Assembly: GCF_001642025.1 (NCBI RefSeq)
Contig: NZ_LWHO01000009.1
Location: 45,156 to 109,155, forward strand
From: Cutibacterium namnetense
GTDB lineage: Bacteria; Actinomycetota; Actinomycetes; Propionibacteriales; Propionibacteriaceae
Direction of reading: 5' to 3'
DNA length: 64,000 bases
Shown here: one piece after another, positions 1,785-63,571 of the stretch
How the letters are laid out: each line of letters opens with the position of its first letter
Position numbering within the stretch: the stretch's first letter is position 1
Program-made: the position numbers and the translations under genes
The notes under the pieces: model-generated
Database searches by the model: none
Told to the model about the DNA's origin: nothing
What the model saw: the letters and a program-made list of their open reading frames with translations, nothing else

Positions 1785-4219
1785 GCCACACCTGCCTCTC
1801 GGGAAGTTTCGGATTCAACGGCGCTCAATGAAACGACAGTTCCGGGAGCGTCGGGGACGGTGGTTCGACTCTGCGGAGCAGTCGAATCGCCACGCAGCGA
1901 CGGGATCCACACTGCCTCAGCCGCCATCGTCGCGTCGATCTTGACCGGAAGTCGCAGATTGATAGGGCCGCAGACATCAATGAGCTGCCCAGTGGTCACG
2001 CCAAGTTGCTCGGCTGTCAACGGGTCGATGACGGCGACCGGAGCGGGGGCGGTGGCAACCAGGGCATCGGCACCGGTCAGGCTTGCCGAACCCTCCAGAA
2101 GCTGACGCCAGGTTTCCAGCACTCGGCCAACCGAACCAGCCTCAACCATGGGGGTCTGTGGTACGAGCGGGGAGGTCGACGCCATCTTCGGGTGACCACC
2201 CTGCCACTGCCCAAGGTCTGTCCAGGCTTTATGGGCCTGAGCGACCGTTGCGAGGCCGGAGACCGACCCCATCTGGGAGCTCAGGGCGTCGATGACGCGG
2301 ATCTCGTTCATGGGCGTCGCGGGCTGCTTATTGACCACCCTGACTCGGCCAGGGCGATGCTCCCAGTCAAGGAAGGTACCGGAGGTTTCCTCCAGCAGGC
2401 AGACCGGCAAGACAACGTCAGCCCGGGCCGAAACCTCGGAAAAGCGCTGCTCGACCGAAACGACGAACCCGCAATTCTCGACAGCCTCGCGGGCTCCGGT
2501 CGGGTCGGGCATATCGGCCAGCTCTACGCCAGAAACAACCAGCGCGTCGAGTTTTCCGGCCTGGGCGGCAGCCAGCATTCCGCCGGTGTCAAGGCCAGGC
2601 TGGGTTGGCAAGTTACTGGCTCCCCACGCGGCCGCGACATCTACGCGAGCCTTGGAATCGTCGACGAGACGCCCACCTGGCAGCAGCTGAGGCAGCAGAC
2701 CAGCCTCGATGGCACCAATCTCGCCAGCTCGACGCGGCACCCAGGCCACCCGAACCGTCGGGTCAAGGTCGTTGATGGCCGACAGGGTACCGGGCCGGGT
2801 AGCGGCCCTCTCCCCCACCAACACGATGGTTCCCTCCCCAATGGTCCCGTCGGCGACCAACTGGGCGAGAGCCTCGGGCTCCTGACCGGGCAGGCAGCGA
2901 GCCAGCTCGGCTCCCATCTTCGCCGAGCCATTGGACAGGTGAGTTCCGACTGCAGTGATCGCCACCTTGTGCCGACGCCACGCCTTACGCAGGCGCAGGA
3001 AGATCATCGGGCACTCGTCCTCAGGCTCCAAGGCCACCAGGACCACCCGCGAAGCCTTCTCAAGGTCGGCGTAGGTGACCGACTCCTCAAGACTGCGCCC
3101 GGCGACTCTGGCACCCAGATAGGCGGCCTCCTCAGCCGAGTGTGGCCGGGAACGGAAGTCGACGTTGTTGGTGCCGAGCACGACTCGAGCAAACCGGGAC
3201 CAGGACAGGCACGTCTCCACCGGGAGGCGTCCACCGGTGAGGACGCCGACGCTAGTACCAGCTTTCGTTAATCCAGCGGCGGCGGTCTGTAGGGCCTCGG
3301 CCCATGACGCCGGCTCCAACACGCCGTTGTGACGCACTAGCGGAGTCGTGACCCGGTCGTCAGCACGGCCGTAGCGGAAGGCGAAGCGCCCCTTATCGCA
3401 GTTCCACTCCTCGTTGACCTCCGACAGGTTGCCGGCGTTGCGACGCTTGACTTCGTAGTGACGGTGATCGGTGCGCAGCTGGCAGCCGGCTGCGCAGTGC
3501 TCACAGGTCGTCACCGTCGAGACCAGATCGAAGGGACGGGAACGGAAGCGGTACTCGGCGCTGGTAAGAGCTCCCACCGGGCAGATCTGGATGACGTTGC
3601 CAGAGAAGTAGGAGTTGAAGTCGTCACCCTGGTAAGCACCAATCTGGGAGACGGCGCCGCGCTCCTGCAGGTTGATGAAGGGGTCTCCGGCGATCTGATC
3701 AGCGAATCGAGTGCAGCGCTGACACAGCACACAACGCTCACGGTCCAACAGCACCTGGGCCGAGATGTTGATCGGCTTGGGATACGTGCGCTTGACCCCG
3801 CCGTAGCGGGACTCACCACGCCCGTTAGCCATCGCCTGGTTCTGCAGCGGGCACTCGCCACCCTTGTCGCAGATCGGGCAATCCAGCGGGTGGTTAATGA
3901 GGAGGAACTCCAGCATGCCCTCTTGGGATTTGCGAGCCATCTCGGAGCTGACCTGAGTCTTGACGATCATCCCCTCGGCGACCGGCATGGTGCAAGACGG
4001 TTGCGGCTTGGGGAAGCCACGGCCGTTACCGGCATCGGGGATCTCGACAAGGCACTCTCGACAGGCACCAGCTGGATCGAGCAGCGGATGATCACAAAAC
4101 CTTGGGATAGCAGTGCCGATAGATTCGGCCGCACGAATGATGAGGGTTCCCTTGGGGACACTCACCTGTTGACCGTCGATAGTGCACGTCACGAGTTCGA
4201 CGGGCTTGTTTTCGCTCAT
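1781..4219 (-). CDS. nuoG: NADH-quinone oxidoreductase subunit G (75 kDa Fe-S subunit)
   Basis: An 812-aa protein with an N-terminal 2Fe-2S/4Fe-4S Cys cluster region (CDHPLLDPAGACRECLVE..., CPICDKGGECPLQ) and a molybdopterin-oxidoreductase-like body. It lies between nuoF and nuoH. Confidence 0.92.
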   Translation of the reverse strand: MSENKPVELVTCTIDGQQVSVPKGTLIIRAAESIGTAIPRFCDHPLLDPAGACRECLVEIPDAGNGRGFPKPQPSCTMPVAEGMIVKTQVSSEMARKSQEGMLEFLLINHPLDCPICDKGGECPLQNQAMANGRGESRYGGVKRTYPKPINISAQVLLDRERCVLCQRCTRFADQIAGDPFINLQERGAVSQIGAYQGDDFNSYFSGNVIQICPVGALTSAEYRFRSRPFDLVSTVTTCEHCAAGCQLRTDHRHYEVKRRNAGNLSEVNEEWNCDKGRFAFRYGRADDRVTTPLVRHNGVLEPASWAEALQTAAAGLTKAGTSVGVLTGGRLPVETCLSWSRFARVVLGTNNVDFRSRPHSAEEAAYLGARVAGRSLEESVTYADLEKASRVVLVALEPEDECPMIFLRLRKAWRRHKVAITAVGTHLSNGSAKMGAELARCLPGQEPEALAQLVADGTIGEGTIVLVGERAATRPGTLSAINDLDPTVRVAWVPRRAGEIGAIEAGLLPQLLPGGRLVDDSKARVDVAAAWGASNLPTQPGLDTGGMLAAAQAGKLDALVVSGVELADMPDPTGAREAVENCGFVVSVEQRFSEVSARADVVLPVCLLEETSGTFLDWEHRPGRVRVVNKQPATPMNEIRVIDALSSQMGSVSGLATVAQAHKAWTDLGQWQGGHPKMASTSPLVPQTPMVEAGSVGRVLETWRQLLEGSASLTGADALVATAPAPVAVIDPLTAEQLGVTTGQLIDVCGPINLRLPVKIDATMAAEAVWIPSLRGDSTAPQSRTTVPDAPGTVVSLSAVESETSREAGVA

Positions 4220-5550
4220 GCTCCGGCCCCCTCCAGGACTCGGCGATCGGCGTCAGTGAAGACCGAACTGCGCTCATAGGGCAAGTACTGCCAGGCGGGT
4301 ATTCCTCGACAGCCAGCTTCAAATTCGTCGCGGAAGTAGCCAATGGCCCCGCGCAGACAGCCCACGGCACCGTCAGCCAGAGCGCAGAATGAACGGCCAC
4401 CGATATTGTCGGCAATGTCCATCAGCTTGTCGACATCACCTTCGGCACCCTCGCCGGCCTCGATGCGACGCAGCATCTGGACCACCCACCAGGTGCCCTC
4501 ACGGCACGGGGTGCACTTGCCACACGACTCGTGCTTGTAGAACTCTAGCCACCGCAAGGTGACTCGAACCACCGAAGTAGTCTCATCGAAACATTGCAGA
4601 GCCTTCGTGCCGAGCATCGTTTTGGCCCCGGCCATCCCCTCATAGTCGAGTGGGAGGTCAATGTCATCCTTGGTCAGGATCGGTGTCGAGGAGCCACCGG
4701 GAGTAAAGAACTTCAGTTCGTGTCCCTGTCGCATGCCACCGGAGATGTCGAGCAGCTGACGCAGCGTAATACCCATGGGGGCCTCATACTGCCCAGGACG
4801 GGCCACATGCCCGGACAAGGAGTAGATGGTAAAGCCATCGGACTTCTCGGTGCCCATGTATTTGAACCATTCCTTGCCGTTACGCAGGATCGACGGCACC
4901 GTCGAGATGGATTCGACGTTGTTAATAACCGTCGGGCTGGCGTACAGACCCGCAACAGCCGGGAAGGGCGGGCGCAGCCGAGGCTGACCACGACGTCCCT
5001 CCAAGGAATCCAGCAGAGCCGTTTCCTCGCCACAGATGTAGGCGCCTGCGCCGGCATGGACGACGACGTCGAGATCGTAACCGGAACCGAGGATGTTCTT
5101 GCCGATGTAACCGGCCGAGTAGGCCTCCCGCACAGCCTGCTGCACGCGTCGGACAACGTGCAGCACCTCACCGCGAATATAGATGAAAGCCACTTTGGCC
5201 TTGATGGCGTAGGAGGCGATGATGACACCCTCGACGAGGGTGTGCGGGGAGGCCATCATGAGCGGCATGTCCTTGCATGTACCAGGCTCGGACTCATCAC
5301 CGTTGACAACAAGGTAGGTCGGGTTGGGGTTGTCCTTGGGCACGAACGACCACTTCATGCCGGTCGGGAATCCAGCGCCACCACGGCCGCGCAGATTAGC
5401 GTCCTTGACCAGCGAGACGACCTCATCAGGCTGCATCGTCAAAGCTTTACGAAGGCCGGTGTATCCGCCCTGTCGCTCGTAGTTGAGCAGCTTCCAGCTA
5501 CGCTCGTCGTCCCAATTCGCCGACAGAACCGGGGTCAGTGGATCGGTCAC
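4216..5550 (-). CDS. nuoF: NADH-quinone oxidoreductase subunit F (51 kDa, FMN/NADH-binding)
   Basis: A 444-aa protein with GRGGAGFPTG (FMN/NAD site) and a C-terminal ESCGKCTPCREG 4Fe-4S motif. It overlaps nuoE by 4 nt. Confidence 0.93.
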   Translation of the reverse strand: MTDPLTPVLSANWDDERSWKLLNYERQGGYTGLRKALTMQPDEVVSLVKDANLRGRGGAGFPTGMKWSFVPKDNPNPTYLVVNGDESEPGTCKDMPLMMASPHTLVEGVIIASYAIKAKVAFIYIRGEVLHVVRRVQQAVREAYSAGYIGKNILGSGYDLDVVVHAGAGAYICGEETALLDSLEGRRGQPRLRPPFPAVAGLYASPTVINNVESISTVPSILRNGKEWFKYMGTEKSDGFTIYSLSGHVARPGQYEAPMGITLRQLLDISGGMRQGHELKFFTPGGSSTPILTKDDIDLPLDYEGMAGAKTMLGTKALQCFDETTSVVRVTLRWLEFYKHESCGKCTPCREGTWWVVQMLRRIEAGEGAEGDVDKLMDIADNIGGRSFCALADGAVGCLRGAIGYFRDEFEAGCRGIPAWQYLPYERSSVFTDADRRVLEGAGA

Positions 5551-6329
5551 TTCTTCTCCTCCACGGGCTCAGCGGGAGCGGGCAGGCTATTTGGGTCTGG
5601 AGCCTTCCAGCCGTTTTGTTTAGCTAGTCGAACACCCTGCACAGATGCCTCACCGGCGCTGGGACCCTCGTCGGCCCGACCGTCGGGGAAGCCGGCGAGC
5701 ACTCGCTCGGCCTCACGCCAACTGGTGATCTTCGCACCACGGGTGGAGTGAACCTCTTCGTCGCGGGCCAAAGCGTCCAGGATTTCTTCGGCGCGGATCG
5801 GGGTCATGTTATCCATGTACTCCCAGTTGACCATCATGATCGGCGCGAAATCGCAGGCGGCGTTGCACTCCACTCTCTCGAGGGAGAACTTGCCGTCGGG
5901 GGTCGTCTCCCCCTCCTTGATGCCAAGTTTCTTCTCGACACGGGCAAGCACCTCCTCGCCACCCATGACGGCACACAGCGCCGTGGTACACACCCCGATG
6001 TGATGCTGACCCGCGGGGTGCTTCTTGTACATGGTGTAGAAGGTCGCTACCCCAGAGACCTGGGCGGTAGTGATGCCGAGCACCTCGGCTGCGGTCTCAA
6101 TGCCGACCGGCGAGATGCGTCCATCCACTGACTGGACCAGATGGAGGATCGGCAACAGGGCCGAACGGGAGTCAGGGTAACGCGAGGCGATCTGACGCAT
6201 CTCCTCGACGGTGTGCTCGTCAATATTGGTGGAACGGTCAGTCTGGTCGACTCCACCGGTCCCTGAGAAGTCCGAATGGAAAGACTCGACGTAGGGGTAT
6301 CCCAGGTTGACGGGTTCTCGATCGCTCAT
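5547..6329 (-). CDS. nuoE: NADH-quinone oxidoreductase subunit E (24 kDa, 2Fe-2S)
   Basis: A 260-aa protein with a thioredoxin-like 2Fe-2S region (CTTALCAV...CNAAC). Its position between nuoD and nuoF supports the call. Confidence 0.9.
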
Positions 6330-7627
6330 CGGTCAACTCCTCCCATGACGGGATCCAGGGATGCCAGAGACGGCACCACGTCGGAAAGCATTCCGCCCTC
6401 ACACATGGCGGGCAGGGACTGCACGTTGATGAATCCAGGGTCGCGCAAGTGGGAACGGTAGGGCCGAACGCCGCCGTCAGAGACGAGATGACAGCCGAGC
6501 TCGCCACCAGCTCCCTCGATGGCCTGGTACACCTGGCCAGCAGGTACCCGGAATCCCTCGGTGACGATCTTGAAGTGATGGATGAGAGCCTCCATAGACT
6601 CGCCCATGATGTGGCGAATGTGCTCATTGGAGTTGCCCTGACCGTCGGGGCCTAAAGCCAGTTCAGCCGGCCACGCGATGTGCGGGTCTTCGACCATGTG
6701 ACGCTCACCCTGGGTGTCCTCAAGGCGCTTGAGACATTGCTTGAGGATGCGCACCGACTGGTCCATCTCTTCCAGACGGATGCGGAAGCGCCCGTAACAG
6801 TCGCAGGTATCCCAGGTGGCGACGTCGAAGTCGTACGTCTCGTAACCGCAATAGGGCTGGGTCTTGCGAAGGTCCCACGGTAGGCCGGTAGCGCGCAGAG
6901 CAGGGCCGGTAACTCCCAGGGCCATACAGGTAGATAGGTCGGCGTAACCGATGCCCTTGGTGCGGGTCTTAAAGATCGGGTTCTCATTGCAGAACTGGCC
7001 GATCTCGGGGAGGTACTTCTCCATCCGCTTGATGAGGTCGCGCAACTGGTCGAGTCCGGTCTCGGGCAGGTCGGTAGCGACGCCACCGGGACGGATCCAC
7101 GCGTTATTCATGCGCAAACCCGTGACGGCCTGGTTGAATTCCAGGATGATCTCGCGTTCCCTCAGGCCAACCTCGGCCACCGAGGACGCACCAAGCTCCA
7201 GACCACCCGTACCCACCGCGATGAGGTGGGAGGAAATGCGGTTCAACTCGGTAATCATGACCCGAAGTACGCGAGCGCGCTCGGGGACGTCGTCGGTAAC
7301 ACCGAGCAACTTTTCGACGGCCAGGCAATACACGAGCTCGTTAAAGAAGTTCGCAACGTAATTGCACCGGGTCATGAAGGTGACACCCTGAGTCCAGGTG
7401 CGGAACTCCATGTTCTTTTCGATACCGGTATGGAGGAATCCAACCCCGACTCGCAGGTCTGACACCGACTCGCCGTCAAGCTCGATGATGAGCCTCATGA
7501 CGCCGTGGGTAGACGGGTGGGAAGGCCCGAAGTTCACGACGACGGTTTCGTCGCCTCGCTCAGCAGCCTCATCAACAATCTGGGCCCAGTCGCCGCCCTG
7601 GGACAAGTACTCGTGGTTCTCGCTCAT
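6326..7627 (-). CDS. nuoD: NADH-quinone oxidoreductase subunit D (49 kDa)
   Basis: A 433-aa protein of the NuoD/NiFe-hydrogenase large-subunit-like family (N-terminal ...[12 protein letters not shown]..., C-terminal ...[26 protein letters not shown]...), in operon position. Confidence 0.92.
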
Positions 7628-8451
7628 CAGTTGTAGCTCCTGCGCTGGTCCGGCGGTGGCACGACGGCACCCTTATATTCGATCGGAATACCACCGAGGG
7701 GGTAGTCCTTGCGCTGCGGATGGCCGACCCAATCGTCGGGCATGAGGATGCGAGTAAGAGCCGGGTGGCCGTCGAAAATGACCCCGAACATGTCCCAGGC
7801 CTCGCGCTCCTGAAAGTCCACATGCGGGTAGACCGAAACAATGCTGGGTACGTGGGGAAGGGAGTCGACATCGCTGTGCCCGGTCCGGGCGACGTCTTCT
7901 TGGCCCGGATCAGCCAGAGCAACCTCGAGGCGAATGCGCCGGTTATGTGTCATCGACAGCAGGTCGTACACGACGTGCATCTCGCGCCCGGCCATGTGGG
8001 GATAGTGTACGCAGGTCAAGCATGAACAGCTCTCAAAGCGCAGGGCGTCATCGTCTCGAAGAGCCCTGACGAGTTCGAGGAGCTTTTCCGGGCGGACGAA
8101 GAAAGTGATCTCCCCACGATCGACCACGGTCAGACCGTCAGAAAAGTCAGGGACGAGCTCGGCCATACGATCAGCAACCTCGTCAAACCAGCCCCCATAG
8201 GGGCGCTCGAAGTTGCCAGAGATGTCGACGGTACGAACGATGCCGCCATAGCCAGACGTGTCGCCGGGGCCGGAGGTCGCCGCCCACATGCCCTCTCGAG
8301 TATCGATGCGACGATCGGTCCACTCATGGCTCTTAGCGGGAGTGTGGACCTGGTCGGGATCGTTGGGATCAAGGAAGTTGCGGCCGTCGGGGATGCGATC
8401 CCCGGAGTCCGAGCCGCCTGCGGCACCGCGCGGGGTCGGCTTGTCACTCAT
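7627..8451 (-). CDS. nuoC: NADH-quinone oxidoreductase subunit C (30 kDa)
   Basis: The ORF track extends to 8547, but the likely start is the ATG for MSDKPTPRG at about 8451, overlapping the nuoB stop (ATGA). Complex-I 30-kDa-subunit-like sequence, in operon position. Confidence 0.85.
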
Positions 8452-53213: not shown

Positions 53214-55757
53214 TCAGCTATTGAAGTCACGGGCGGTTTCGGCACGAGATGCGGCGTCGCGACGCTCCCTAACCATCCGGGTCAGACCACCAGAGGCCAA
53301 CTGGTGACTCGCCAACCAACGGTCAGCAGTCTCGGCGACATCGCCGTCAGGGAACAATCCGACGACTAGACGCTGGGCCATCTCAATCGGGAACTCCTGC
53401 CAGATCTGCTCAAGATCATCGAAATAAGAGCTATTAAGACCGGCAAAGGCCTCTGCTCCCAGCGGGGTACGCAATCCCTCGATGAGGGCCAGACAGTGCT
53501 CATTGGACAGCTCCCCCGGGGTGCGCAGGCGACGATAGGCCTCCTGTTTTGCGGCATCGTCGGGACAGGCGGTGAGGGCAGCGAGGTGATGGGCGACACC
53601 GGTCTTGGTGTGGTCACGCTCTAGCTCAGCATCTAGATCTTCGACGCTGGCCTGGCCCAGACCCGCCAAGGCCATCCAGGACTGCCACCTCATCTCCGGA
53701 TCGACGACCAGGCCGGTGACATCACCGTCAAGCAAGCCACGGACCCGTCCAGCCGACTGCGGATCGGCAGCTGACAACGCCAGAGCGTGACGAGCCCACA
53801 TGCGCTGTAGATCGCTACCTGGCTCGGAGCCATCGAGTCCGAGCCAAGCCCGGGCTGCCTCCGCGCGACGTGCACTCTCGCGAGCAAAATCAGGCAGATA
53901 GTTCTCGACGGCCATTCGTGACTGCTGCAAAACGGTGGCAAGGATGGCCGGTTCGGTCTCCTTGGGGCCATGCAGGGCAGCAGCATCGAGGTAGTCCTGC
54001 ACCTTGAGCTTGGCGTCGCGCACGGCATTCCACAGCATCGACCAGACCAGCGCGCGAGCCAATGGGTCAGTCAGGCCCGACAGGTGGGCAAGGACGGTCT
54101 TCGTACCGGTGGCGCCGAGACGCACCTTGGCGTAGGTGAGGTCATCATCGTTGATAAGGATGAGGTCGGGAGCCGGCCTGCCCGCAGCCTCAGGAACCGG
54201 AGTGCGCGGGGAAGAGATAGCGAGATCAATGAGGTTAGTGCGCACCAGGTCTTCGCCACGCAGGGAGTACAGCCCGACACGCAAAGTGTGGGGACGATTA
54301 ACGCCGCGGCCAGTGCGGACGTCGACCGAATCACGCACTACAGCCAGCTCGGAAACTACACCGTCACGAATGGTGAGCTCTGGCAGCAGAACGTCGGGAC
54401 CAGTGGTCTTGAGCCAAGCGTTGACCCAGACGCTCAGATCGCGTCCGCAGGCCTTTTCGAGGTGACGAATGAGGTCGTCGAGGGTGGCTGACGAGAAAGC
54501 CAATTCGCGGAAGTAGTGGCGGGCCGCGCCAAAGAACCGCTCAACACCGACATGGGCCACCAGCTGTTTGAGCACCGAGGCGCCTTTGGCATAGGTGATG
54601 CCGTCAAAGTTTTGACGGGCAGCCTCCAGATCGACGATGTCAGCGACGATTGGATGAGTTGTCGACTGCTGATCGGCGGTGTAGGCCCAGGCTTTGCGCC
54701 CGACGGCGAAGTTCGTCCAAGCCTCGCGGTATTCGGTGCCGGCGACCGAGGCGTGAGCGCCCATGTACTCGGCGAAAGACTCCTTGAGCCACAAATCGTC
54801 CCACCACTTCGGGGTGACGAGATCGCCAAACCACATGTGGGCCATCTCGTGGAGAATGGTGTTGGTACGCCCTGCGAGCTCAGATCGAGTAGCCGGGCCG
54901 CGATGGATGTACTTCTCGGTGAAGGTCACCAGACCCGGATTCTCCATAGCGCCAAGGTTGTATTCCGGCACGAAGATCTGGTCGTACTTGCCCCACGGGT
55001 AGGGGTAGCCGAAGGCGTCGTGGTAGAAGGCCAGGCCCTGCTTGGTGATCTTGAAGATCTCCTCATGATCCACGTACTCGGCCAAGGATGCGCGAGCGAG
55101 AATGCCCAGCGGGATGGACTCCGAGCCGTCGCGGGAGTGCCATTCGTCCTCGAATCGGACGTACGGGCCAGCGGCGATGGCGGTGAGGTAGGTCGACATC
55201 CTCGGGGTGAGTGCGAAATCGTGTAGAAGGCCATTTTCCTCCTCCCGAATGTCCTCGTGGACCTGGTTGGAGGCGACCCGCCAGTCGCTCGGGGCGATGA
55301 CGTCAAAGTCGACGTGGGCTTTGAGGTCAGGCTGCTCGAACACTGAGTACATCCGGCGAGAGTCCGCCGCCTCAAAGTGGGTGTAGAGGTAAACCTTGCC
55401 GTCGGCGGGATCGACGAAGCGGTGCAAGCCCTGGCCAGTGTGTTGGTAGGGCAGCTTGGCGGTGACGACGACGAGATTCTTACGATGAGTATGGAGTCCG
55501 TGAAGCTGGATACGAGAGCCGTCATACTCCGGCTCGACCTCCTCATCGTTGACGATGACCGACTCAATCTCGCCGTCGAGCAAGTCCAGGAAGGTGTCGG
55601 GCTCCTTGGTCGAGAATCGCACCCTGGTGCTGGAGGTGAAGTGGGTGGCCCCATCAGCGTCTGCACCGCGCACGTCGATGCGGACGTGGTATCTCTCGAC
55701 AGTGATGATCTCGGACCGGTGACGGGCTTCTTCGCGGGTCAGATTCTTCGTACTCAC
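53214..55757 (-). CDS. pepN: Aminopeptidase N (M1 family)
   Basis: GAMEN, plus HEMAHMWFGDLVT and a downstream E forming the HExxH-E18 zinc site. The protein is 847 aa. Confidence 0.9.
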   Translation of the reverse strand: MSTKNLTREEARHRSEIITVERYHVRIDVRGADADGATHFTSSTRVRFSTKEPDTFLDLLDGEIESVIVNDEEVEPEYDGSRIQLHGLHTHRKNLVVVTAKLPYQHTGQGLHRFVDPADGKVYLYTHFEAADSRRMYSVFEQPDLKAHVDFDVIAPSDWRVASNQVHEDIREEENGLLHDFALTPRMSTYLTAIAAGPYVRFEDEWHSRDGSESIPLGILARASLAEYVDHEEIFKITKQGLAFYHDAFGYPYPWGKYDQIFVPEYNLGAMENPGLVTFTEKYIHRGPATRSELAGRTNTILHEMAHMWFGDLVTPKWWDDLWLKESFAEYMGAHASVAGTEYREAWTNFAVGRKAWAYTADQQSTTHPIVADIVDLEAARQNFDGITYAKGASVLKQLVAHVGVERFFGAARHYFRELAFSSATLDDLIRHLEKACGRDLSVWVNAWLKTTGPDVLLPELTIRDGVVSELAVVRDSVDVRTGRGVNRPHTLRVGLYSLRGEDLVRTNLIDLAISSPRTPVPEAAGRPAPDLILINDDDLTYAKVRLGATGTKTVLAHLSGLTDPLARALVWSMLWNAVRDAKLKVQDYLDAAALHGPKETEPAILATVLQQSRMAVENYLPDFARESARRAEAARAWLGLDGSEPGSDLQRMWARHALALSAADPQSAGRVRGLLDGDVTGLVVDPEMRWQSWMALAGLGQASVEDLDAELERDHTKTGVAHHLAALTACPDDAAKQEAYRRLRTPGELSNEHCLALIEGLRTPLGAEAFAGLNSSYFDDLEQIWQEFPIEMAQRLVVGLFPDGDVAETADRWLASHQLASGGLTRMVRERRDAASRAETARDFNS

Positions 55758-55896
55758 ACCACCAGAGTATGGCAGTGGCGCGTGCCATGGGCGTCTAGAC
55801 CGAGCAGTTCCTCTGGATGAAGCTGTACCTCGAACCGATCAGGGTGTCTCATGTCCGCTGTTGACGGGTACGAGCCGGCGGGCAAGGGCAGCCGTG

Positions 55897-56334
55897 TCAG
55901 GGTAGGTCATCCAGCGATTCCTTTGGACAATCGACCTGCTGGACCGTCACCCCATGGGCCACGTCGTAAACCCGACACGCGACCGAGGATGCCGATTTGC
56001 CCCCGTCAGGTGGCAACAGAGAGCCTGACTCCATATGCCTGTATAAGTCGACACGAAACCGGGTCCCCTCACGACTACGCACAACCCACCGGTCGACGAC
56101 GTTAACATCCGGCGGGTTGGTCTCGTTGAACCATGTCTGCGCGGCGTCCGCACGTTCAGCCGGGGAGGTGAGCCCATGCGAGTCCAACTCCTTGCGCAAC
56201 GCGTCGGGCAGGTCGTAGTCAGCTCGCCCAGCAACATCCTCATCTGTCTCAGACTGGATCGTGCTGCAACCCGCCACACCGAAGCAGAACAGCACACACG
56301 CAGTCATGACGACCACGAACCGAGGACTCCTCAT
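55897..56334 (-). CDS. Lipoprotein, tandem-duplicate copy 1
   Basis: MRSPRFVVVMTACVLFCFGVAGCST carries the lipobox VAGC. It shares about 85% identity with copy 2, including an identical C-terminal 40 aa. Confidence 0.7.
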   Translation of the reverse strand: MRSPRFVVVMTACVLFCFGVAGCSTIQSETDEDVAGRADYDLPDALRKELDSHGLTSPAERADAAQTWFNETNPPDVNVVDRWVVRSREGTRFRVDLYRHMESGSLLPPDGGKSASSVACRVYDVAHGVTVQQVDCPKESLDDLP

Positions 56335-56601
56335 CGGCGCCCCCTCAGTTCTCGCCGAGCAACCGCACACCGCTCCGGCAGATACGCATCTATGGTACCA
56401 GCACCCCTGGCACATCCACATCACACAGTCACGATTGCGACTAAGACGCGAAGTTCTAGCAAGAAAGGCAGGGCGTCATCACTGCGCTTGGTGAGGAGCT
56501 TGCCGAGTCAACCGATGGTGATCAAACGCTGTCCCTCGAACCAATCGGATGTCTCATCTTCACTGTTAACGAGTACGAGCCGGCGGGCAAGGGCAGCCGT
56601 G

Positions 56602-57039
56602 TCAGGGTAGGTCATCCAGCGATTCCTTTGGACAATCGACCTGCTGGACCGTCACCCCATGGGCCACGTCGTAAACCCGACACGCGACCGAGGATGCCGA
56701 TTTCCCCCCGTCAGGTGGCAACAGAGAGCCTGACTCCACACGGACGTAGAAGTCGACACGCAACCGGGTCCCCTCACGACTACGCACCACCCAATGGCCA
56801 CCAAGAGAGATGTCTATCGGCCTGGTCTCGTTAAACCACACCTGCGCGGCGTCCGCACGCTCAGCCGGGGAGGCAAGCCCCCGCGAGTCCAACTCTTTGC
56901 GCAGCGCACGGGGCACGGCAACGTCGGCGCTATCCGCTGCTTGCACATCCGCCTCAGATTGGATCGTGCTGCAACCCGCCACACCGAAGCAGAACAGCAC
57001 ACACGCAGTCATGACGACCACGAACCGAGGACCCCTCAT
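56602..57039 (-). CDS. Lipoprotein, tandem-duplicate copy 2
   Basis: MRGPRFVVVMTACVLFCFGVAGCST. Its ATG overlaps the stop of the upstream Tat-signal gene (ATGA). Confidence 0.7.
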   Translation of the reverse strand: MRGPRFVVVMTACVLFCFGVAGCSTIQSEADVQAADSADVAVPRALRKELDSRGLASPAERADAAQVWFNETRPIDISLGGHWVVRSREGTRLRVDFYVRVESGSLLPPDGGKSASSVACRVYDVAHGVTVQQVDCPKESLDDLP

Positions 57040-57725
57040 CGGCGCCCCCTCAGTTCTCGCCGAGCAACCGCACACCGCTCCGGCAGATACGCATCTATGG
57101 TACCAGCGCCCCCTGACGCATCCACGTGATCGACCACGTCGAAATGGCTCTGCAACCGTCCCACCTCAGGTGAAGTCGAACCTTTCGCGAGGTAGATCAA
57201 GGACTGGTCAGGCACCCTGAGATGCCCACCCCAAGCCAGGACTCCTCGCGACTCAGCAACGATATCCTCCAGCACAACAACCTCATCGGGGAAAAGATTA
57301 CCCGTTGACCCGTACGGGAGAAAACTCTCACGAAAAAGGAAGGCTGTCCCGGACAGAAGGTTGGACCGTTGCGGTGAGGCAACATTCCGGTCATGCTGGA
57401 GCCCTGCCACGTCACCGGGACGCAATGAGACAAGTTCGTAGTTGATGCGCCTCAAGGCATGCAGCAGCACGACCGACGGTGCACCGGTCGTCAGAGTCAC
57501 GTCGATCCCTGCACCCTCGACCGTCTGCGCAGCAGCAGCGGCACCGATCGGCCAGTCGTTAGCGCTGCGCATCCCAGACCATCGTTGCACGCGAGAAGGC
57601 TGGATGGGCGACAACGGAACCGGGGGCAGGGCGGCGGCCTCAGAAGCCAGAACGGCCGTCAGCCCGCTTGCGGCCATACCGCTCAGCAAGGCACGACGGG
57701 GAATCTTGTAGGAATTGTGTGTCAT
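57036..57725 (-). CDS. Tat-signal secreted hypothetical protein
   Basis: MTHNSYKIPRRALLSGMAASGLTAVLASEAAA is a twin-arginine motif. An RBS AAGGAAC lies 7 nt upstream and immediately follows the stop of the large upstream gene. Confidence 0.6.
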   Translation of the reverse strand: MTHNSYKIPRRALLSGMAASGLTAVLASEAAALPPVPLSPIQPSRVQRWSGMRSANDWPIGAAAAAQTVEGAGIDVTLTTGAPSVVLLHALRRINYELVSLRPGDVAGLQHDRNVASPQRSNLLSGTAFLFRESFLPYGSTGNLFPDEVVVLEDIVAESRGVLAWGGHLRVPDQSLIYLAKGSTSPEVGRLQSHFDVVDHVDASGGAGTIDAYLPERCAVARRELRGRR

Positions 57726-57738
57726 CGCCGCGTTCCTT

Positions 57739-60117
57739 TCACGCGCTTTCCGCCAGCTGACTGACAATCTTGGCGAAACCTTCAAAAAATGGGGACAATT
57801 TCTCCGACGGCAGTACTTCCGGCAACAGAGCTTTATCTCTGATCTGCATCTCCACCGCTGCTACTTGCAATTTGTGCAGCACAGAATCGGATGAATCGAA
57901 AAACATAGCCCGAGCCGATTTCTCAACAGAATCGGACGACGAGTTAAACCGCAGCCGATAGAAGTCGCGGAAGCGGGTCGTAATCGCCTGGCCAGTCAGG
58001 TAATCCCTCAGCACCGTCTTGAAGGGCACGCCAGCACGGATCGCCCGGCCCAGAAGATATCCATCCACATCTTCGATCATGTCCGAGAAACCGAAGGACG
58101 ACTCGACACCGCGATGAGCAAGCCGATCCATACAAAACGCGTACCCCGACGCATAACTCCTCTCATTGTTCATCCAGTCGGCATAGAAGGTCGAGAGGTC
58201 ACCACCCCAGCCCCCGAAATCGCCTCGGTTCGCATTTTTCCCGTCGCCCCAGCCCATAAGCATGACGGCGTTGGCAGTCGCGGCGAGATGATCCATTGAT
58301 ACGGTCTCATTGTAAATGGGATCCTCGAACGTGAGCATAAGCGAGCCAAGTTCGCTCGTAGCTGCCGTGAGCCAGTCCTCATCGGGAGCCCCGAGCAAGA
58401 TCCTCCAACCTGCGTAGACGTGGGTGTACTTCGGGTGTCGAAGGAACTCCAGCACCCGTTTGTTGATAAGGGCGACGTCACTGGTGCCCCCACCGAATTT
58501 CGCCGCCATGTCATGGACCTGGTCAACTTTAGCCAAGGTGTCCTCCAACTTTGACGGTGTATGCCCACCCACTCCATCCGGGCCAATCCCCGGATCAATT
58601 TTCGTACGGTGCACATCGCGGTCCAAATCAATTTCCTTGCCAGAATCAGCAGAGTAACGAACCTCCTGAATCTGGTTGAACGACCAATTATACGGAAGAG
58701 GGAACCCGAGATTGCCGGAGAAGCCCCACGACATTCCTGAGACAAATGAACTTACCGTGTAAGTCTGCTCTGAGACGCGCGAGCAGACATTACGACAACC
58801 GTAGACGCCAGCGCGATAGGCATGACCTCGGCTAGCCAAGGCCGCCTGAACTCCCCGAAAATAAGGAATAATATTGCTGTCAATTTCAGGATCGGTTGCG
58901 TCATGGTCCACCGAGAAGTAGACAATGGCGCCTGGATTGAAACCGTAATAGACCATGCGGTCATGTGCCTTATTTCCGTGTTCCCATCCAGATTCAAAGG
59001 AGAAATCAATCAGGTCACGTGCATTGTACTGCCAAATGGGGAACACTCTCATGTTGCCAGCAAAAATAGCATGGAGTTCACCATCTTTGAGTTTTTTATC
59101 CAGCTTGCCGCCGGGGGGTTCATCAAGATACCTACCTACGACCCTATAACCCGATCTGACCAGCGAATGCGCAAGCGACTCCGTGATCGTGAAACGAGTA
59201 TCACACGCATGCGCCGCGCGATTTGGGTCACCTGTGGATACCAATAATTGACACCACGTTGCGTAGTCCACACGATTGGTAACTGGTAGCAAACTGAATG
59301 CTTGAAATGCCTGAATATACTTGGCCAACTTGTCATCAAACGTAGACTTGAACATTGTATGAACCATGCCTTCACCTCTTGGAACAGCACCGTTGAAGAC
59401 ACAAGCCGCAGACAGCAACTCGACAAGAACACCACTATCACCAGGCTTCAAAATATGGGCTGCCAGCTGCCGTTGGGTCGCCGGCCCGAAATTCCCATTC
59501 ACCGAGGCGTCCGCTATCCCAAACTCAGACTGGAGGGCCTTCATTAGTAATTTCTGAACGTCACGTGAATAATGTCCCTCCGTAGGGATAAGCGTTGCAA
59601 AACTACGCCGCCAATAACGGCCATTCAACCACTGCTGGATCTTACGAACTTCCGGATCACCTCCGGCGACTAGGACGTAAGCATCCATCGTGAGCAAGGC
59701 CTTGAACAGTTTAGCATTCAGTCTCTCCTGCTTCCCAATACCCATGTTGTCGGTCATGGCATACAAGGAACCCGCCACTGCATCCTGCTGCGGCCCAAAA
59801 GGAGGTGAACTTCTCCAGATCCCGTCGAGATCCCCACCGGGATAACCTTTACAGTAAAAGGCGCACTTAATGATGTTGACAATATTCTTGTTCTGTTCGC
59901 CCGGCCCGACACCACCACGGGCGTCCACCTTGGACATTGTGGTCGGACCGAACGCATGCGACAGTTCCTGGATCCCCAACTCGTGCTGCAAGCCTTGCGT
60001 GAGCGAGTACATCGTCGCCCAATTCGTTTTGCCATTCTCCGGGCAACGGTCATAGCCAGCAATGCCCGAATACGTCGCGTTGACCCACCTCTGGGCATCC
60101 AGCACCCGCTCATCCAT
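57739..60117 (-). CDS. Large cytoplasmic-start (no signal peptide) multidomain protein: 3x peptidoglycan-binding (PG_binding_1-like) repeats + DUF1906/Rv2525c-type GH25-like domain + roughly 330-aa unknown C-terminal domain
   Basis: The repeats are ...RWVNATYSGIAGY..., ...IQQWLNGRYWRR... and ...GNFGPATQRQLAAHIL.... The DUF1906-like core reads ...VYFSVDHDATD...YFRGVQAALASRGHAYRAGVYG.... GC is about 52% against about 63% in the flanks. The ATG at 60117 is preceded by AGGGG; an alternative GTG lies at 60147. Confidence 0.6.
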   Translation of the reverse strand: MDERVLDAQRWVNATYSGIAGYDRCPENGKTNWATMYSLTQGLQHELGIQELSHAFGPTTMSKVDARGGVGPGEQNKNIVNIIKCAFYCKGYPGGDLDGIWRSSPPFGPQQDAVAGSLYAMTDNMGIGKQERLNAKLFKALLTMDAYVLVAGGDPEVRKIQQWLNGRYWRRSFATLIPTEGHYSRDVQKLLMKALQSEFGIADASVNGNFGPATQRQLAAHILKPGDSGVLVELLSAACVFNGAVPRGEGMVHTMFKSTFDDKLAKYIQAFQAFSLLPVTNRVDYATWCQLLVSTGDPNRAAHACDTRFTITESLAHSLVRSGYRVVGRYLDEPPGGKLDKKLKDGELHAIFAGNMRVFPIWQYNARDLIDFSFESGWEHGNKAHDRMVYYGFNPGAIVYFSVDHDATDPEIDSNIIPYFRGVQAALASRGHAYRAGVYGCRNVCSRVSEQTYTVSSFVSGMSWGFSGNLGFPLPYNWSFNQIQEVRYSADSGKEIDLDRDVHRTKIDPGIGPDGVGGHTPSKLEDTLAKVDQVHDMAAKFGGGTSDVALINKRVLEFLRHPKYTHVYAGWRILLGAPDEDWLTAATSELGSLMLTFEDPIYNETVSMDHLAATANAVMLMGWGDGKNANRGDFGGWGGDLSTFYADWMNNERSYASGYAFCMDRLAHRGVESSFGFSDMIEDVDGYLLGRAIRAGVPFKTVLRDYLTGQAITTRFRDFYRLRFNSSSDSVEKSARAMFFDSSDSVLHKLQVAAVEMQIRDKALLPEVLPSEKLSPFFEGFAKIVSQLAESA

Positions 60118-60661
60118 GAATAAACCCCTATCTGCGCTGCAAGCCACGTGCTTTTAGTTATCACGATTATCGTGTTTCTGTATTATCCGCACGAACGCGG
60201 ATAGTACACAAAACACTCGGCTCCCAAGCTAGGGGATAGCATCCGTGCCTAGCCCGCAGGCAGCCACCCCCAACCTTCCCTCGTCCAAAACTTACGCACA
60301 ACGATTCTCCGAGGCCAAAGGCCGCTCTCATTGCTGGAAGCCCAAAGGTCATCTGGAGTCCAAATCACTCGCGGTTGCAAAACACATCGCCATCGCCACG
60401 GCACAAACCCAGATGGGCACTTCTCCGATCGATTTCCCAATTCGAGGGAGCAAAGATCATCCGCGTCATTTCTATTACCTGAGAAAACACGTCACCATGG
60501 CCATCAGAAAAAGAAGCCGATATTCATACCAGCACGCATCGGCATCCATGCGCGCTACGCGAAAAGCGGCTGACCGGGCCGAGCACCGTGACATGATGGC
60601 ATTAGTCGGCGATGCGATGGGCCACCGACCACTAATCGCGTACACACCGTAAGGAGTACCA

Positions 60662-62023
60662 GTGTCGAACACAGAGCTCACGGTCGATGTTCTGGTCATC
60701 GGATGGGGCAACGCCGGCAAAACGATCGCCGGACGCCTGGCGGCGGAGGGACGCAAAGTCGCCCTCGTCGAGAGATCAGCACAGATGTACGGCGGCACTT
60801 GCATCAACATTGCATGCGTACCTACCAAGGACCTCATCGACTCGGCATCCAAACGGGACGGTCGCGACCCTGTTTCCTACTTCACCTCAGCTGTTGCCGA
60901 CCGAGACGCCCTCATCGCGACATTGAACCACGCGAATCATGCCATGTTGGAGGGCAAGGTGCTCCTCCTCGACGGGATAGCCAGCTTCACCGGGCCGCAC
61001 ACTGTCAAGGTGGCCGGTGGAGACGATGAGATCGCCGTGCATGCGGAGACGATTATCGTCAACACGGGATCTCACCCGGCCACCCTTCCAATTCCGGGAG
61101 CCGATGGTCCACGGGTCCATGACTCCACCACGATCCAGCACGTCGATCCCCTGCCGTCGCGACTCGTCATCGTAGGCGGCGGCTTCATCGGGCTGGAGTT
61201 CGCTCAGATGTTCGCCCGATTCGGCTCCCAGGTGATCCTGCTTGAGGCCGGCGAGACTTTCGCCCCAGCCCTAGATTCGGACATCGCGACCCGGGTGCGC
61301 GGCATGCTTGAGGGCGAGGGGATCACCGTCGTCACCGGAGCACAGGTGACCTCTTTCGATGACGCAGGCGATCATGTCGACATTGTCACCGGCGATCGGA
61401 CATTCGCCGCCGATGCGGTGCTGGTGGCAGCGGGCAGACGCCCAGCGACCGAAGACCTCAATCTGGCCGCCGCCGGGGTGGCCACTGATGAGCGGGGTTA
61501 CATCATCGTCGACGATCAGCTGCGCACCAACGTTGAGGGGGTGTACGCGGTCGGTGACGTCAACGGTGGACCGCAGTTCACCTATGTCTCCCTTGACGAC
61601 AACCGCGTGCTGTGGGACACCCTGCATGACGGGCCCCGCCGCCGTGACGATCGGGTGGGGGTCCCAGCGACGACCTTCCTCGAGCCGCCGCTATCCCAGG
61701 TCGGCATGACGATGCGCCAGGCCCGGGAGTCCGGTCGCTCGGTACTCGTGGCGACCAAGGATGTCGCCGCGATCGCCGCCATGCCGCGACCCAAGATTGT
61801 CGGCCAAACCGAGGGTGTCATTCGAGTCTTCGTCGACGCCGACGACCACACCATCCTGGGCGCGACTCTGTGGTGCATTGATTCGCAGGAACTGGTCAAC
61901 CTTGTCTCACTAGCCATGCGGTTGGGAGCGCGCTACGAGACGTTGCGTGACGGGATCTGGACACACCCGTCCTCGACCGAAGCTTTCAATGAGGTACTCG
62001 CGGCGCTCGAACCCCTCCGCTGA
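60662..62023 (+). CDS. FAD-dependent pyridine nucleotide-disulfide oxidoreductase (class I, redox-active CxxxxC)
   Basis: VIGWGNAGKTIA is the FAD site, GGTCINIACVPTK the redox disulfide, VIVGGGFIGLE the NAD site, and there is a C-terminal HP dimerisation motif. Confidence 0.8.
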   Translation: MSNTELTVDVLVIGWGNAGKTIAGRLAAEGRKVALVERSAQMYGGTCINIACVPTKDLIDSASKRDGRDPVSYFTSAVADRDALIATLNHANHAMLEGKVLLLDGIASFTGPHTVKVAGGDDEIAVHAETIIVNTGSHPATLPIPGADGPRVHDSTTIQHVDPLPSRLVIVGGGFIGLEFAQMFARFGSQVILLEAGETFAPALDSDIATRVRGMLEGEGITVVTGAQVTSFDDAGDHVDIVTGDRTFAADAVLVAAGRRPATEDLNLAAAGVATDERGYIIVDDQLRTNVEGVYAVGDVNGGPQFTYVSLDDNRVLWDTLHDGPRRRDDRVGVPATTFLEPPLSQVGMTMRQARESGRSVLVATKDVAAIAAMPRPKIVGQTEGVIRVFVDADDHTILGATLWCIDSQELVNLVSLAMRLGARYETLRDGIWTHPSSTEAFNEVLAALEPLR

Positions 62024-62095: not shown

Positions 62096-63571
62096 TCAAG
62101 AAGCCTTGGGAGCCGAGACGACTTCGGGTTTAAGGTCTCCGGTCTCAACCTTGACAACGCGTCCGGCCTTGTCGACAGTTACCTTGGCGCTCATGGCTGC
62201 GGCCAGATTGAGGCGCTGCCATCCACCCGAGGAGGAGTCGAGAGCGTATCCGGCATCAATCTCGGTGGCCGCCAGCACCTGACGGCGCTGGGCATCGGAG
62301 AGAGTTGGGAAAGCAGTGTCCAACAGATTCTCAGCACCAGCCGGAACGACCGGAGCGGTAGCGCTGGGGGCCGGGCCGCCATAGGCGGAAGCCTTGTCAA
62401 AACCGTAAGTCATGCGGGCACGATAGGCCTTGAGTGCTGAGGCGCGATCAACTACCGGTGCCGTTGACACCGAGTCGGTGAAGGTGTTGTAGTAACCCTT
62501 CTTGTCGTTAGCCCCTACGTTTCCAATGCATGCCTGCAAAGTGTCACCGTGACCGTCGGCTTCACAACGGTGAGTGAGGTATGCCGTGAGCTCGGTGCGG
62601 GCGGCCTTGAGGGAGGCAACGTACAACCTATCTGTGGTCAGCGCACCGGACACGTTGCTGTGACCCTCGATGCGCCCACCCATGATGTCCATCGGGTAGT
62701 GCACGCCGAGCACGACGCGATTGTTGCCGGCCTCGGATGCTCGGGCGAGGATCTCGGGACCCAGCTCGGGCAAAACCTCAGCCAAGGCCAGACCATAGGC
62801 ATAGGCAGCGGTGGTGTGCCCGGACGGGAAGGCCTGGCTGACAGTCAGATTGGTGCCTGAAGCGCCGTTCATCAGGTCGTAGCCGGCGGTGAGGAGAGCC
62901 CGGCCGCCCCTCTTGTGATCCACATCAATTCGGCTCGGCACACGCTCGATATCGAGGTTCTTTTTGAGGCCGTGAAGGTCGTTCGGGTTCCCGGAATCGG
63001 CGAAGCTACGATCAGTAAGATATGGGCGCGGGTAGTTGAAGTATTTCTTCGCGGGTCCGGTACCCTTCGTCATCACTTCCTGGAAGCCTGTCGACCAGAT
63101 AAACCGGGCAACGTGGTTAAGGCTGCAGGAATGAAGGTTCACGGGGGTACACCGGGCAAGTCCCTCGGCCACGTATTTACCGAGGACCGGGCCGAGGGAA
63201 TCGTTGTCTTCTTGCAGCGGATCGGTAAACATCGTGGCATCGCGTAGGGCACGCCACTGTTGGGATCGGCCCTGCCGGTCAGCAGCTTGCTGCGCTTGAT
63301 CAAAGCCAGCCTTGTTGATCTGCTCGACACCTTCGTCGTTGCGAGTCAGGAGCTTCGAACCCTGGGCCGTGACGTCACCGCGGAAAGCAGTGTGGAAGTC
63401 CTTCTTGTCAAAAGGCTTGGGGCTCCAGTAGCGGTTGTATTCGCTCAAGAGGGCGACGTGCGGATCTGCGGATTCATCAGTTTGGGCCGCCTGGGCGGGG
63501 CTCACCCCCACAGTGCTGACGAGCGCCGTCGCACAGGCAAGGCCCAGGACAGAGGTACGAAGGATTTTCAC
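62096..63571 (-). CDS. Secreted PAP2-superfamily acid phosphatase (or haloperoxidase-like)
   Basis: A signal peptide MKILRTSVLGLACATALVSTVGVSPAQA, plus the PAP2 motifs KYFNYPRP, PSGH and GVHYPMD. Confidence 0.7.
   Translation of the reverse strand: MKILRTSVLGLACATALVSTVGVSPAQAAQTDESADPHVALLSEYNRYWSPKPFDKKDFHTAFRGDVTAQGSKLLTRNDEGVEQINKAGFDQAQQAADRQGRSQQWRALRDATMFTDPLQEDNDSLGPVLGKYVAEGLARCTPVNLHSCSLNHVARFIWSTGFQEVMTKGTGPAKKYFNYPRPYLTDRSFADSGNPNDLHGLKKNLDIERVPSRIDVDHKRGGRALLTAGYDLMNGASGTNLTVSQAFPSGHTTAAYAYGLALAEVLPELGPEILARASEAGNNRVVLGVHYPMDIMGGRIEGHSNVSGALTTDRLYVASLKAARTELTAYLTHRCEADGHGDTLQACIGNVGANDKKGYYNTFTDSVSTAPVVDRASALKAYRARMTYGFDKASAYGGPAPSATAPVVPAGAENLLDTAFPTLSDAQRRQVLAATEIDAGYALDSSSGGWQRLNLAAAMSAKVTVDKAGRVVKVETGDLKPEVVSAPKAS

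Follow-up and report, generated by a model that had tools for sequence, protein, structure and literature searches.

What a protein equipped to bind the cell wall might do outside the cytoplasm, and how it would get there without an export signal of its own, is the question raised by a four-gene module of Cutibacterium namnetense. The module lies in a 64,000-nucleotide stretch of contig NZ_LWHO01000009.1 (RefSeq assembly GCF_001642025.1, positions 45,156 to 109,155), referred to here as the window, whose own numbering is used throughout. All four genes are on the minus strand and encode a large protein (the effector), a smaller partner with a twin-arginine signal, and two lipoproteins, A and B. 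The best-supported interpretation is that the module specifies a secreted antibacterial effector with lipoprotein immunity, to which we attach a probability of roughly 0.55. It is favoured because the N-terminal 485 residues of the effector are homologous to BacA, an effector of the bacteriolysin Bac41, and because the lipoproteins are membrane-tethered, variable in copy number and highly polymorphic. The large and partner proteins very probably belong to a described, never experimentally tested conflict system built on TelC fusions.

The effector gene (57739..60117) encodes 792 residues, identical to C. namnetense protein WP_063811687.1, and combines peptidoglycan (PG)-binding repeats, an Rv2525c/GH25-like TIM barrel and a TelC-like domain. 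Its start was placed at the ATG at 60117, which is shared by 21 aligned homologues; an in-frame GTG upstream, at 60147, would add only 10 residues. The effector stop is directly followed by AAGGAA, and 13 nt separate it from the ATG of the partner gene (57036..57725), whose 229-residue product carries a twin-arginine signal and a VanY/LAS fold and is predicted to be a pseudo-peptidase. The partner stop overlaps, as ATGA, the start of the gene for lipoprotein A (56602..57039; 145 residues, A-type), a candidate immunity protein translationally coupled to the partner. The gene for lipoprotein B (55897..56334; 145 residues, B-type) is a candidate second, orphan immunity gene. A preliminary description of this DNA had already reported the secreted twin-arginine protein directly downstream of the large gene, the ATGA overlap and the tandem duplication of the lipoprotein gene, all of which were confirmed, the first of them from the signal sequence; the interval in which it placed the module, 57036-60245, takes in the effector and partner genes but leaves out the lipoprotein genes of its own title.

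The N-terminal part of the effector holds two mutually homologous PG-binding-like repeats, at residues 2-74 (59896..60114) and 154-227 (59437..59658), which align with each other by hhalign with a probability of 98.6% (E 9e-16). They are followed by a partial match to Pfam PG_binding_1 at residues 258-288 (59254..59346; E 1.7e-6, 28.6 bits against a cut-off of 23), and the count of three repeats given earlier was reasonable. The corresponding N-terminal element is named PGBD in the literature (PMC12419801; Burroughs, Nicastro & Aravind, eLife 2025). Residues 319-501 (58615..59163) form an Rv2525c_GlyHyd-like TIM barrel (PF08924, DUF1906, GH25-like), as previously proposed, with an E-value of 7.7e-43 and a score of 147.4 bits against a gathering cut-off of 27.2, covering profile positions 3-196 of 198. 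The Pfam scan of the effector returned only PG_binding_1 and this domain, and no LXG domain. Equally, the reported lack of a signal peptide held: the N-terminus is acidic and non-hydrophobic, and an N-terminal extension was found in 0 of 21 aligned homologues.

The C-terminal domain, at first thought to span about 330 residues and to match no recognisable family, proved to be shorter and to have relatives. It comprises the last 281 residues (aa 512-792; 57742..58584), on which newer Pfam releases place PF27189 (YkzU), and is a TelC-like (Lipocone) domain, predicted to be a lipid II-targeting toxin head; the complete architecture is described in PMC12419801. The preliminary description had proposed structure prediction for this domain and for the twin-arginine protein. 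The domain was modelled as all-helical with very high confidence (predicted local distance difference test score, pLDDT, 95.4), and the best structural match of the model, TelC-like in overall fold with two helical lobes and the four-helix Lipocone core, was the streptococcal toxin TelC, at 16% sequence identity; the twin-arginine protein has a LAS fold. The TelC assignment is based on structure and on the published profile analysis (PMC12419801), rather than on a sequence profile of our own. Conserved residues of the domain are H610, D633, D640, R665, D679, D683, D685 and R715, among which H610, D679, D683, D685 and R715 are invariant in the aligned homologues, and D679 and D685 are spaced by six residues. 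The published TelC signature consists of an active-site aspartate in helix H4, a further aspartate six residues on that pairs with a conserved arginine of a C-terminal helix, and a histidine in helix H2; the six-residue spacing with its arginine partner is described as specific to the TelC families (PMC12419801). TelC dephosphorylates lipid II in a Ca-dependent manner and is harmful only when it acts from outside the cytoplasm (PMC5555719). The predicted substrate of the C-terminal domain is lipid II or another precursor of that type linked to undecaprenyl.

A counterpart of the scaffold that carries this head was found in Enterococcus. On the Enterococcus faecalis plasmid pEF9594.1, the match (1366-7831 of the plasmid stretch) lies in a Bac41 operon comprising bacL1, bacL2, a phage-type holin, a 726-residue protein and a small downstream gene; by its length and operon position, the 726-residue "glycoside hydrolase domain-containing protein" corresponds to BacA. 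BacL1 and BacA are the secreted effectors of Bac41, and BacI provides immunity, with subtype diversity of the immunity factor reported. Effector residues 1-485 align with BacA from residue 1 at 37% identity (E 2e-97), with the same PG_binding_1 plus Rv2525c-like organisation, and both proteins lack a signal peptide; an immunity gene also lies downstream of BacA. The homology is confined to these 485 residues and does not extend over the full length, since the C-terminal domain of BacA is Ybfg_C, which is unrelated to the TelC-like head (hhalign probability 0.1%). With a TelC-like head here and Ybfg_C in BacA on the same scaffold, the family behaves like a polymorphic toxin. BacA further differs in acting together with the endopeptidase BacL1, in having a holin and no VanY-like twin-arginine partner in its operon, and in being plasmid-borne in a Firmicute (pYI14-type plasmids of E. 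faecalis). The holin, a Phage_holin_4_1 protein, may explain the release of the signal-less Bac41 effectors.

The TelC-like head itself also occurs on Enterococcus plasmids. A 783-residue homologue, WP_000344083.1, with the PGBD, Rv2525c-like and TelC-like layout (head matched by hhalign at 98.2%), is encoded on the Enterococcus faecium plasmid p71_2_192kb (stretch 4001-6827) and in several hundred other Enterococcus plasmid records. After it lies a gene for a 131-residue protein with an N-terminal membrane anchor, and the two proteins are a candidate toxin-immunity pair on clinical E. faecium plasmids. The 229-residue gene upstream of the homologue was tested as a VanY-like partner and is not VanY-like. 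In a translated search, 564 plasmid records contained homologues, from Enterococcus (384), Lactiplantibacillus (72), Streptomyces (24) and others.

In Actinomycetota, fusions of PGBD, Rv2525c-like and prok-TelC domains have been described in operons that also encode, in some cases, a secreted Ig-pair protein and, in others, a "3TM-CCDN" membrane protein together with a secreted VanY-superfamily peptidase; they were interpreted as conflict systems directed against the wall of rival cells (PMC12419801). The C. namnetense module resembles these systems in the domain order of the effector, the downstream secreted VanY-superfamily gene and the actinomycetotal host. The distribution and composition mapping suggested earlier was carried out by scanning one genome per species (185,579 species genomes, 302 hits) and analysing the best 80 loci. 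Full-length effector homologues with 44-65% identity occur in many Actinomycetes; their distribution is patchy, and some genomes carry two copies. A partner homologue adjoins the effector gene in 77 of the 80 loci and is immediately upstream in one more; besides the partner, the 80 neighbourhoods have no other conserved gene, and their flanks are unrelated. The loci reproduce the published operon, including a membrane protein of 100-165 residues between the effector and partner genes with the C...C..D...N pattern. By motif count it is present in at least 31 loci, among them those of Streptomyces, Micromonospora, Saccharothrix and Lentzea, with the conserved loop C...FPL..C....DLVP..VNP.

The clade formed by Cutibacterium, Knoellia, Dermatophilaceae and Micrococcales departs from this layout. 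It has neither the 3TM-CCDN protein nor the Ig-pair protein described in PMC12419801, and instead carries an unrelated small lipoprotein, in one to three tandem copies, after the partner gene. A second difference concerns the partner, called a peptidase in that work, whereas here the zinc ligands are lost family-wide and the signal is specifically of the twin-arginine type. In the parts of the text and supplementary files of PMC12419801 that were covered, no mention of Cutibacterium or Bac41 was found. What is added to the published system is the lipoprotein as a third type of small partner, the lost catalytic site of the partner and its consistent twin-arginine signal, as well as the population picture in Cutibacterium and the link to Bac41.

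The partner begins with MTHNSYKIPRRALLSGMAASGLTAVLASEAAALPP, and its signal through the cleavage site reads IPRRALLSGMAASGLTAVLASEAAA, followed by LP. As read from the sequence, the first 32 residues (57630..57725) form a signal peptide for the twin-arginine translocation (Tat) system, with the motif IPRRALLSG, a moderately hydrophobic region and an AxA site at which AAA precedes LP, and the protein is a predicted Tat substrate. The arginine pair shows no variation among 50 homologues, 8 of which are recognised by Pfam TAT_signal, and among 95 it is conserved to at least 90%. The mature protein has a VanY/LAS peptidase fold, and the zinc-ligand columns of the family were placed through an alignment with ChiX. 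The His-Asp-His ligands (SxHxxGxAxD ... H) and the catalytic glutamate expected of an active enzyme are not retained: the window partner has L, L and L at the ligand positions and Q in place of the catalytic E. Across the 95 homologues the first histidine position reads Y58, L18 and H13; the aspartate position reads A64, H12 and T8, with D occurring once; and the third histidine position reads H77 and L18, the histidine being lost in the Cutibacterium clade. With its zinc ligands replaced, the partner is predicted to be a LAS-fold pseudo-peptidase.

The lipobox of the lipoproteins is VAGC, after a basic n-region and a hydrophobic h-region, and the signal in the window reads MRGPRFVVVMTACVLFCFGVAG up to the cysteine at which cleavage would occur. 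Across 11 homologues G22 and C23 do not vary, and a pair of C-terminal cysteines is conserved. The duplication (55842..57112) consists of two units of 566 nt, at 55842-56407 and 56547-57112, which are 87-94% identical and separated by 139 nt of unique spacer, giving a period of 705 nt; each unit takes in the final ~73 nt of the partner gene, followed by a lipoprotein gene with ~55 nt of 3' flank. The mature lipoproteins A and B are 79% identical, and B is 99% identical to the sole lipoprotein of C. avidum ATCC 25577. Tandem arrays also occur in Micrococcales bacterium 31B (two copies) and in a Dermatophilaceae metagenome-assembled genome (MAG; three copies), where the duplicated units likewise include the 3' end of the VanY-like gene, and the arrays of these two genomes and of Cutibacterium arose independently. 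The family is very small, with 22 cluster representatives among 1.84 billion in an exhaustive phmmer search. It had no match in Pfam or NCBIfam, and its profile matched the PDB only through the signal peptide of BamD, with no relation to TipC2 or other solved structures. A relationship to the 3TM-CCDN protein was considered and ruled out (hhalign probability 0.3%).

Within Cutibacterium, the module occupies the same site, between an oxidoreductase gene and pepN, in C. avidum, C. modestum and Cutibacterium sp. V947. In sliding-window comparisons, a tract spanning 55600..60730 matched C. avidum ATCC 25577 and Cutibacterium sp. V947 at 95-100% identity, with flanks only 78-88% identical to the same genomes and a gradual decay into pepN down to ~55000. 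A near-identical tract in diverged flanks implies that the module was recently exchanged between species, and the comparison indicates that the exchange ran by recombination in the conserved flanks. Protein identity to C. avidum ATCC 25577 is 98-99% for the PGBD, glycoside hydrolase-like and partner segments, compared with 88% for the TelC domain and 79% for the lipoprotein; synonymous divergence (dS) is 0.29 for the TelC domain and 0.28 for the lipoprotein, and 0.04-0.08 elsewhere. At least five TelC-domain alleles, 6-15% apart, are borne on N-terminal parts that differ by only 0.4-2%, and three lipoprotein types (A, B and C) occur among Cutibacterium strains in one or two copies and in varying order. 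The polymorphic, recombining parts of the module are thus the TelC-like domain and the lipoproteins, and a constant N-terminus with a variable toxin head and a lipoprotein array is the pattern expected of a toxin with its immunity.

Several Cutibacterium sequences depart from the intact module. The C. granulosum copy is a truncated protein of 282 residues that covers only effector residues 1-275, at 94% identity; it was seen on 65 contigs, and the gene appears to be decaying in that species. C. acnes was not returned by the one-genome-per-species scan; a C. acnes MAG contains a partial homologue of 200 residues. On metagenome contig ERZ1030030 NODE_171, which encodes an identical effector, the VanY-like gene is annotated at only 132 residues, suggesting a frameshift or an assembly error. 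Two further metagenome contigs with other alleles of the module have, respectively, an ISL3 transposase immediately upstream and different downstream genes in place of pepN, altered contexts that point to further rearrangements around the module.

Taken as a secreted toxin, the effector would act outside the cytoplasm, where its N-terminal repeats would anchor it to peptidoglycan. A wall glycan is the probable substrate of the GH25-like barrel, while the TelC-like domain would cut lipid II or an undecaprenyl-linked precursor at the outer face of the membrane, so that wall synthesis in the target would stop. On the producer's own outer leaflet, the lipoproteins would neutralise the TelC-like domain as TipC does for TelC, and the second, diverged lipoprotein may protect the producer against a further toxin allele that circulates among Cutibacterium strains. 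The immunity protein TipC is anchored in the membrane and faces the wall, and the telC-tipC operon contains paralogues of tipC (PMC6193138). The resemblance to TelC and TipC of Streptococcus intermedius (PDB 5ukh) has clear bounds: TelC is an LXG toxin exported by type VII secretion, while the effector has no LXG domain, WXG partner or nearby type VII genes and has its toxin head fused to a scaffold with peptidoglycan-binding and glycosidase-like parts; on the immunity side, the candidate is a lipoprotein whose sequence could not be related to any solved structure, TipC2 included.

Export is the weakest step of this mechanism, and the preliminary description was right to single out the exit of a signal-less wall-binding protein as unexplained. 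The dead VanY-fold partner would bind the folded 87-kDa effector in the cytoplasm and carry it through the Tat system, as MelC1 does with tyrosinase. In the Streptomyces MelC1/MelC2 pair, MelC1 carries the signal-less tyrosinase through Tat as a hitchhiker. The likeness is a functional analogy in which a signal-less enzyme gene adjoins the gene of a small twin-arginine partner; the signal peptides of the partner and MelC1 match, with no homology beyond them, and the gene order is reversed. Such hitchhiking is a tentative proposal, advanced because the two genes are almost universally paired and translationally coupled, the twin-arginine signal is conserved and catalysis is lost, and because the partner is highly conserved across different toxin heads while the Cutibacterium locus has no membrane protein. 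Somewhat doubtfully, then, the partner may be a dedicated Tat carrier that has given up catalysis, with allele-specific immunity at the membrane surface provided by the lipoproteins, or by 3TM-CCDN proteins in other lineages.

Several observations weigh against a toxin with lipoprotein immunity, or against its export by this route. The structural match to TelC is moderate, as Foldseek ranked TelC first only weakly (E 0.1, TM 0.34), and a profile of 51 C-terminal domains retrieved no TelC chain from the PDB sequences at E ≤ 10. Neither Rv2525c nor any other member of its family is known to have detectable activity. Across seven alleles, TelC-domain divergence showed no correlation with divergence of the neighbouring lipoprotein (Mantel r = -0.11, p = 0.59), and B-type lipoproteins accompany several different TelC alleles; specific pairing of toxin and immunity protein is therefore not demonstrated. 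Co-variation had looked supportive in three genomes, and was dropped as evidence of pairing when it failed across the seven alleles. The ratio of non-synonymous to synonymous substitution (dN/dS) is below 1, at 0.26 for the TelC domain and 0.5 for the lipoproteins, and positive selection was rejected on this basis; the high divergence of both parts reflects older alleles imported by recombination. With regard to export, BacA and other Firmicute homologues reach the outside with no VanY protein at their side, Bac41 having a holin instead. Tat signals are in any case common in Actinomycetes. In 2 of the 80 loci no VanY-like gene was present within 6 kb, and the open reading frame (ORF) lists of these high-GC loci were too noisy to conclude on another Tat-signal partner. 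The toxin-plus-immunity arrangement suggested at the outset stands as the best-supported reading, through the BacA homology and the polymorphic lipoproteins, but not in its specific pairing.

The same evidence bears on other assignments of roles. One would swap them: the Tat-exported dead VanY-fold protein would be the immunity protein or inhibitor, binding the effector or masking the peptide stem of the producer's lipid II, the lipoproteins would be accessory or receptor-blocking, and the effector would leave when some of the cells lyse, through an unrecognised transporter or, as in Bac41, through a holin-like protein. An enzyme fold that has lost catalysis yet keeps its likeness to a peptide-stem-binding protein could plausibly act as an inhibitor, and apart from the VanY-fold protein no partner is conserved throughout the actinobacterial family. 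The absence of a Tat partner from secreted Firmicute homologues, the holin of the Bac41 operon and the many Streptomyces-type loci with a 3TM-CCDN protein between the effector and partner genes also count in its favour. We nevertheless hold this arrangement to be unlikely: the partner is 98-99% conserved between strains whose TelC domains are 12% apart, which is unlike a cognate immunity protein and fits a general carrier; loci of the Cutibacterium clade contain no membrane protein or holin at all; and a secreted inhibitor has no specific need of a Tat signal, yet the arginine pair is kept in nearly all homologues. Another possibility, that the module remodels the wall of its own host in a housekeeping or conditional role, casts the effector as an autolysin with a lipid-carrier-recycling domain, the VanY-like protein as a non-catalytic regulatory subunit and the lipoproteins as anchors or regulators. 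It draws on Rv2525c, reported to be a Tat-exported, wall-associated protein of Mycobacterium tuberculosis (Bellinzoni 2014) and not known for a toxin role, on the shared chromosomal site in several Cutibacterium species, and on the dN/dS below 1 throughout and the lack of detectable co-variation. The central domain of the effector is a clear member of the family founded by Rv2525c (PF08924); Rv2525c is, however, a single domain with its own Tat signal, and in the effector the domain is one of three parts of a protein that lacks a signal. A self-directed function is also hard to reconcile with the patchy distribution (302 of 185,579), the double copies in some genomes, the C. granulosum remnant, the transfer between species, the abundant plasmid homologues and a GC content below that of the flanks in 76 of 76 loci. 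A scaffold homologous to a bacteriolysin effector, a head resembling a toxin and the hypervariability of the TelC domain and lipoproteins likewise count against it, and we regard it as improbable.

Descent from a prophage lysis cassette, of which the module would preserve an endolysin with its accessory proteins, appears very improbable. Signal-less proteins with PG_binding_1 and GH25-like domains do resemble modular actinophage endolysins, and one uncultured phage record matches effector residues 2-503 at 30% identity. That record is the only match among 50,697 phage records, however, and the module is flanked by pepN, oxidoreductase, major facilitator superfamily (MFS) transporter and purL genes, with no phage genes. 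The same three- or four-gene module moreover recurs in 80 chromosomal loci with unrelated flanks, and a TelC-like domain is not an endolysin component; the earlier suggestion of an endolysin with partner proteins was set aside on the housekeeping neighbours and the single phage record.

The effector gene stands out in base composition. Its GC content is 53.2% (59% at third codon positions), compared with 61.3 ± 3.1% for the genes of the window (70% at third positions) and 61.5% for the window as a whole, close to the 52% and 63% first estimated; the Rv2525c-like domain is its lowest segment (50.6%). Low GC is confined to this gene and the 544 bp upstream of it, as the partner gene (61%) and the lipoprotein genes (61-63%) are ordinary for the window. 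In all 76 testable loci of the survey the effector gene was below its flanks (median -4.7 points, up to -12.5), and low GC is therefore characteristic of the gene family rather than special to the window. The term "lower-GC island" accordingly holds for the effector gene and its recent exchange between species, but not for the remaining genes, nor for the location, which is the same chromosomal site in several Cutibacterium species. The 544-bp region (60118..60661, minus strand; GC 0.54-0.57), presumed to serve as promoter and regulatory region for the effector gene and, divergently, for the oxidoreductase gene, matches C. avidum ATCC 25577 at 98-100% identity, in flanks of ~80-88%. It had no Rfam match and no convincing promoter, and Rfam, promoter and terminator scans of the locus gave nothing useful. 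A basic ORF of 135 residues (60245-60652, plus strand), divergent from the effector gene and without a family match, lies inside this region and is annotated as a gene in some metagenome contigs and not in others.

The genes neighbouring the module in the window are pepN, an MFS transporter gene, purL, a pabB-like gene, norB, the oxidoreductase gene and a gene for a secreted PAP2 phosphatase, and no phage, transposon or type VII secretion genes are among them. The PAP2-superfamily protein (491 residues; 62096-63571, minus strand) is encoded two genes upstream of the module; it is also found in C. modestum and in the metagenome contigs, but for C. avidum ATCC 25577 no alignment covers this stretch. 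Undecaprenyl-pyrophosphate phosphatases are among the PAP2 enzymes, and a connection to lipid II would be pure speculation.

A system of this kind was already described computationally in 2025, and the Cutibacterium module is a local variant of it. The module links the computationally defined PGBD, Rv2525c and TelC systems with BacA of Bac41, which has been studied by experiment but is mechanistically unexplained, and with a very common E. faecium plasmid gene that has a TelC-like head. If the partner does act as a Tat carrier, the family would have a dedicated hitchhiker route for delivering an antibacterial toxin in Actinomycetes. If the favoured reading is correct, some skin lineages of C. 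avidum, C. namnetense and C. modestum would carry a secreted, lipid II-degrading weapon that is exchanged between species, which would bear on competition within the skin microbiome.

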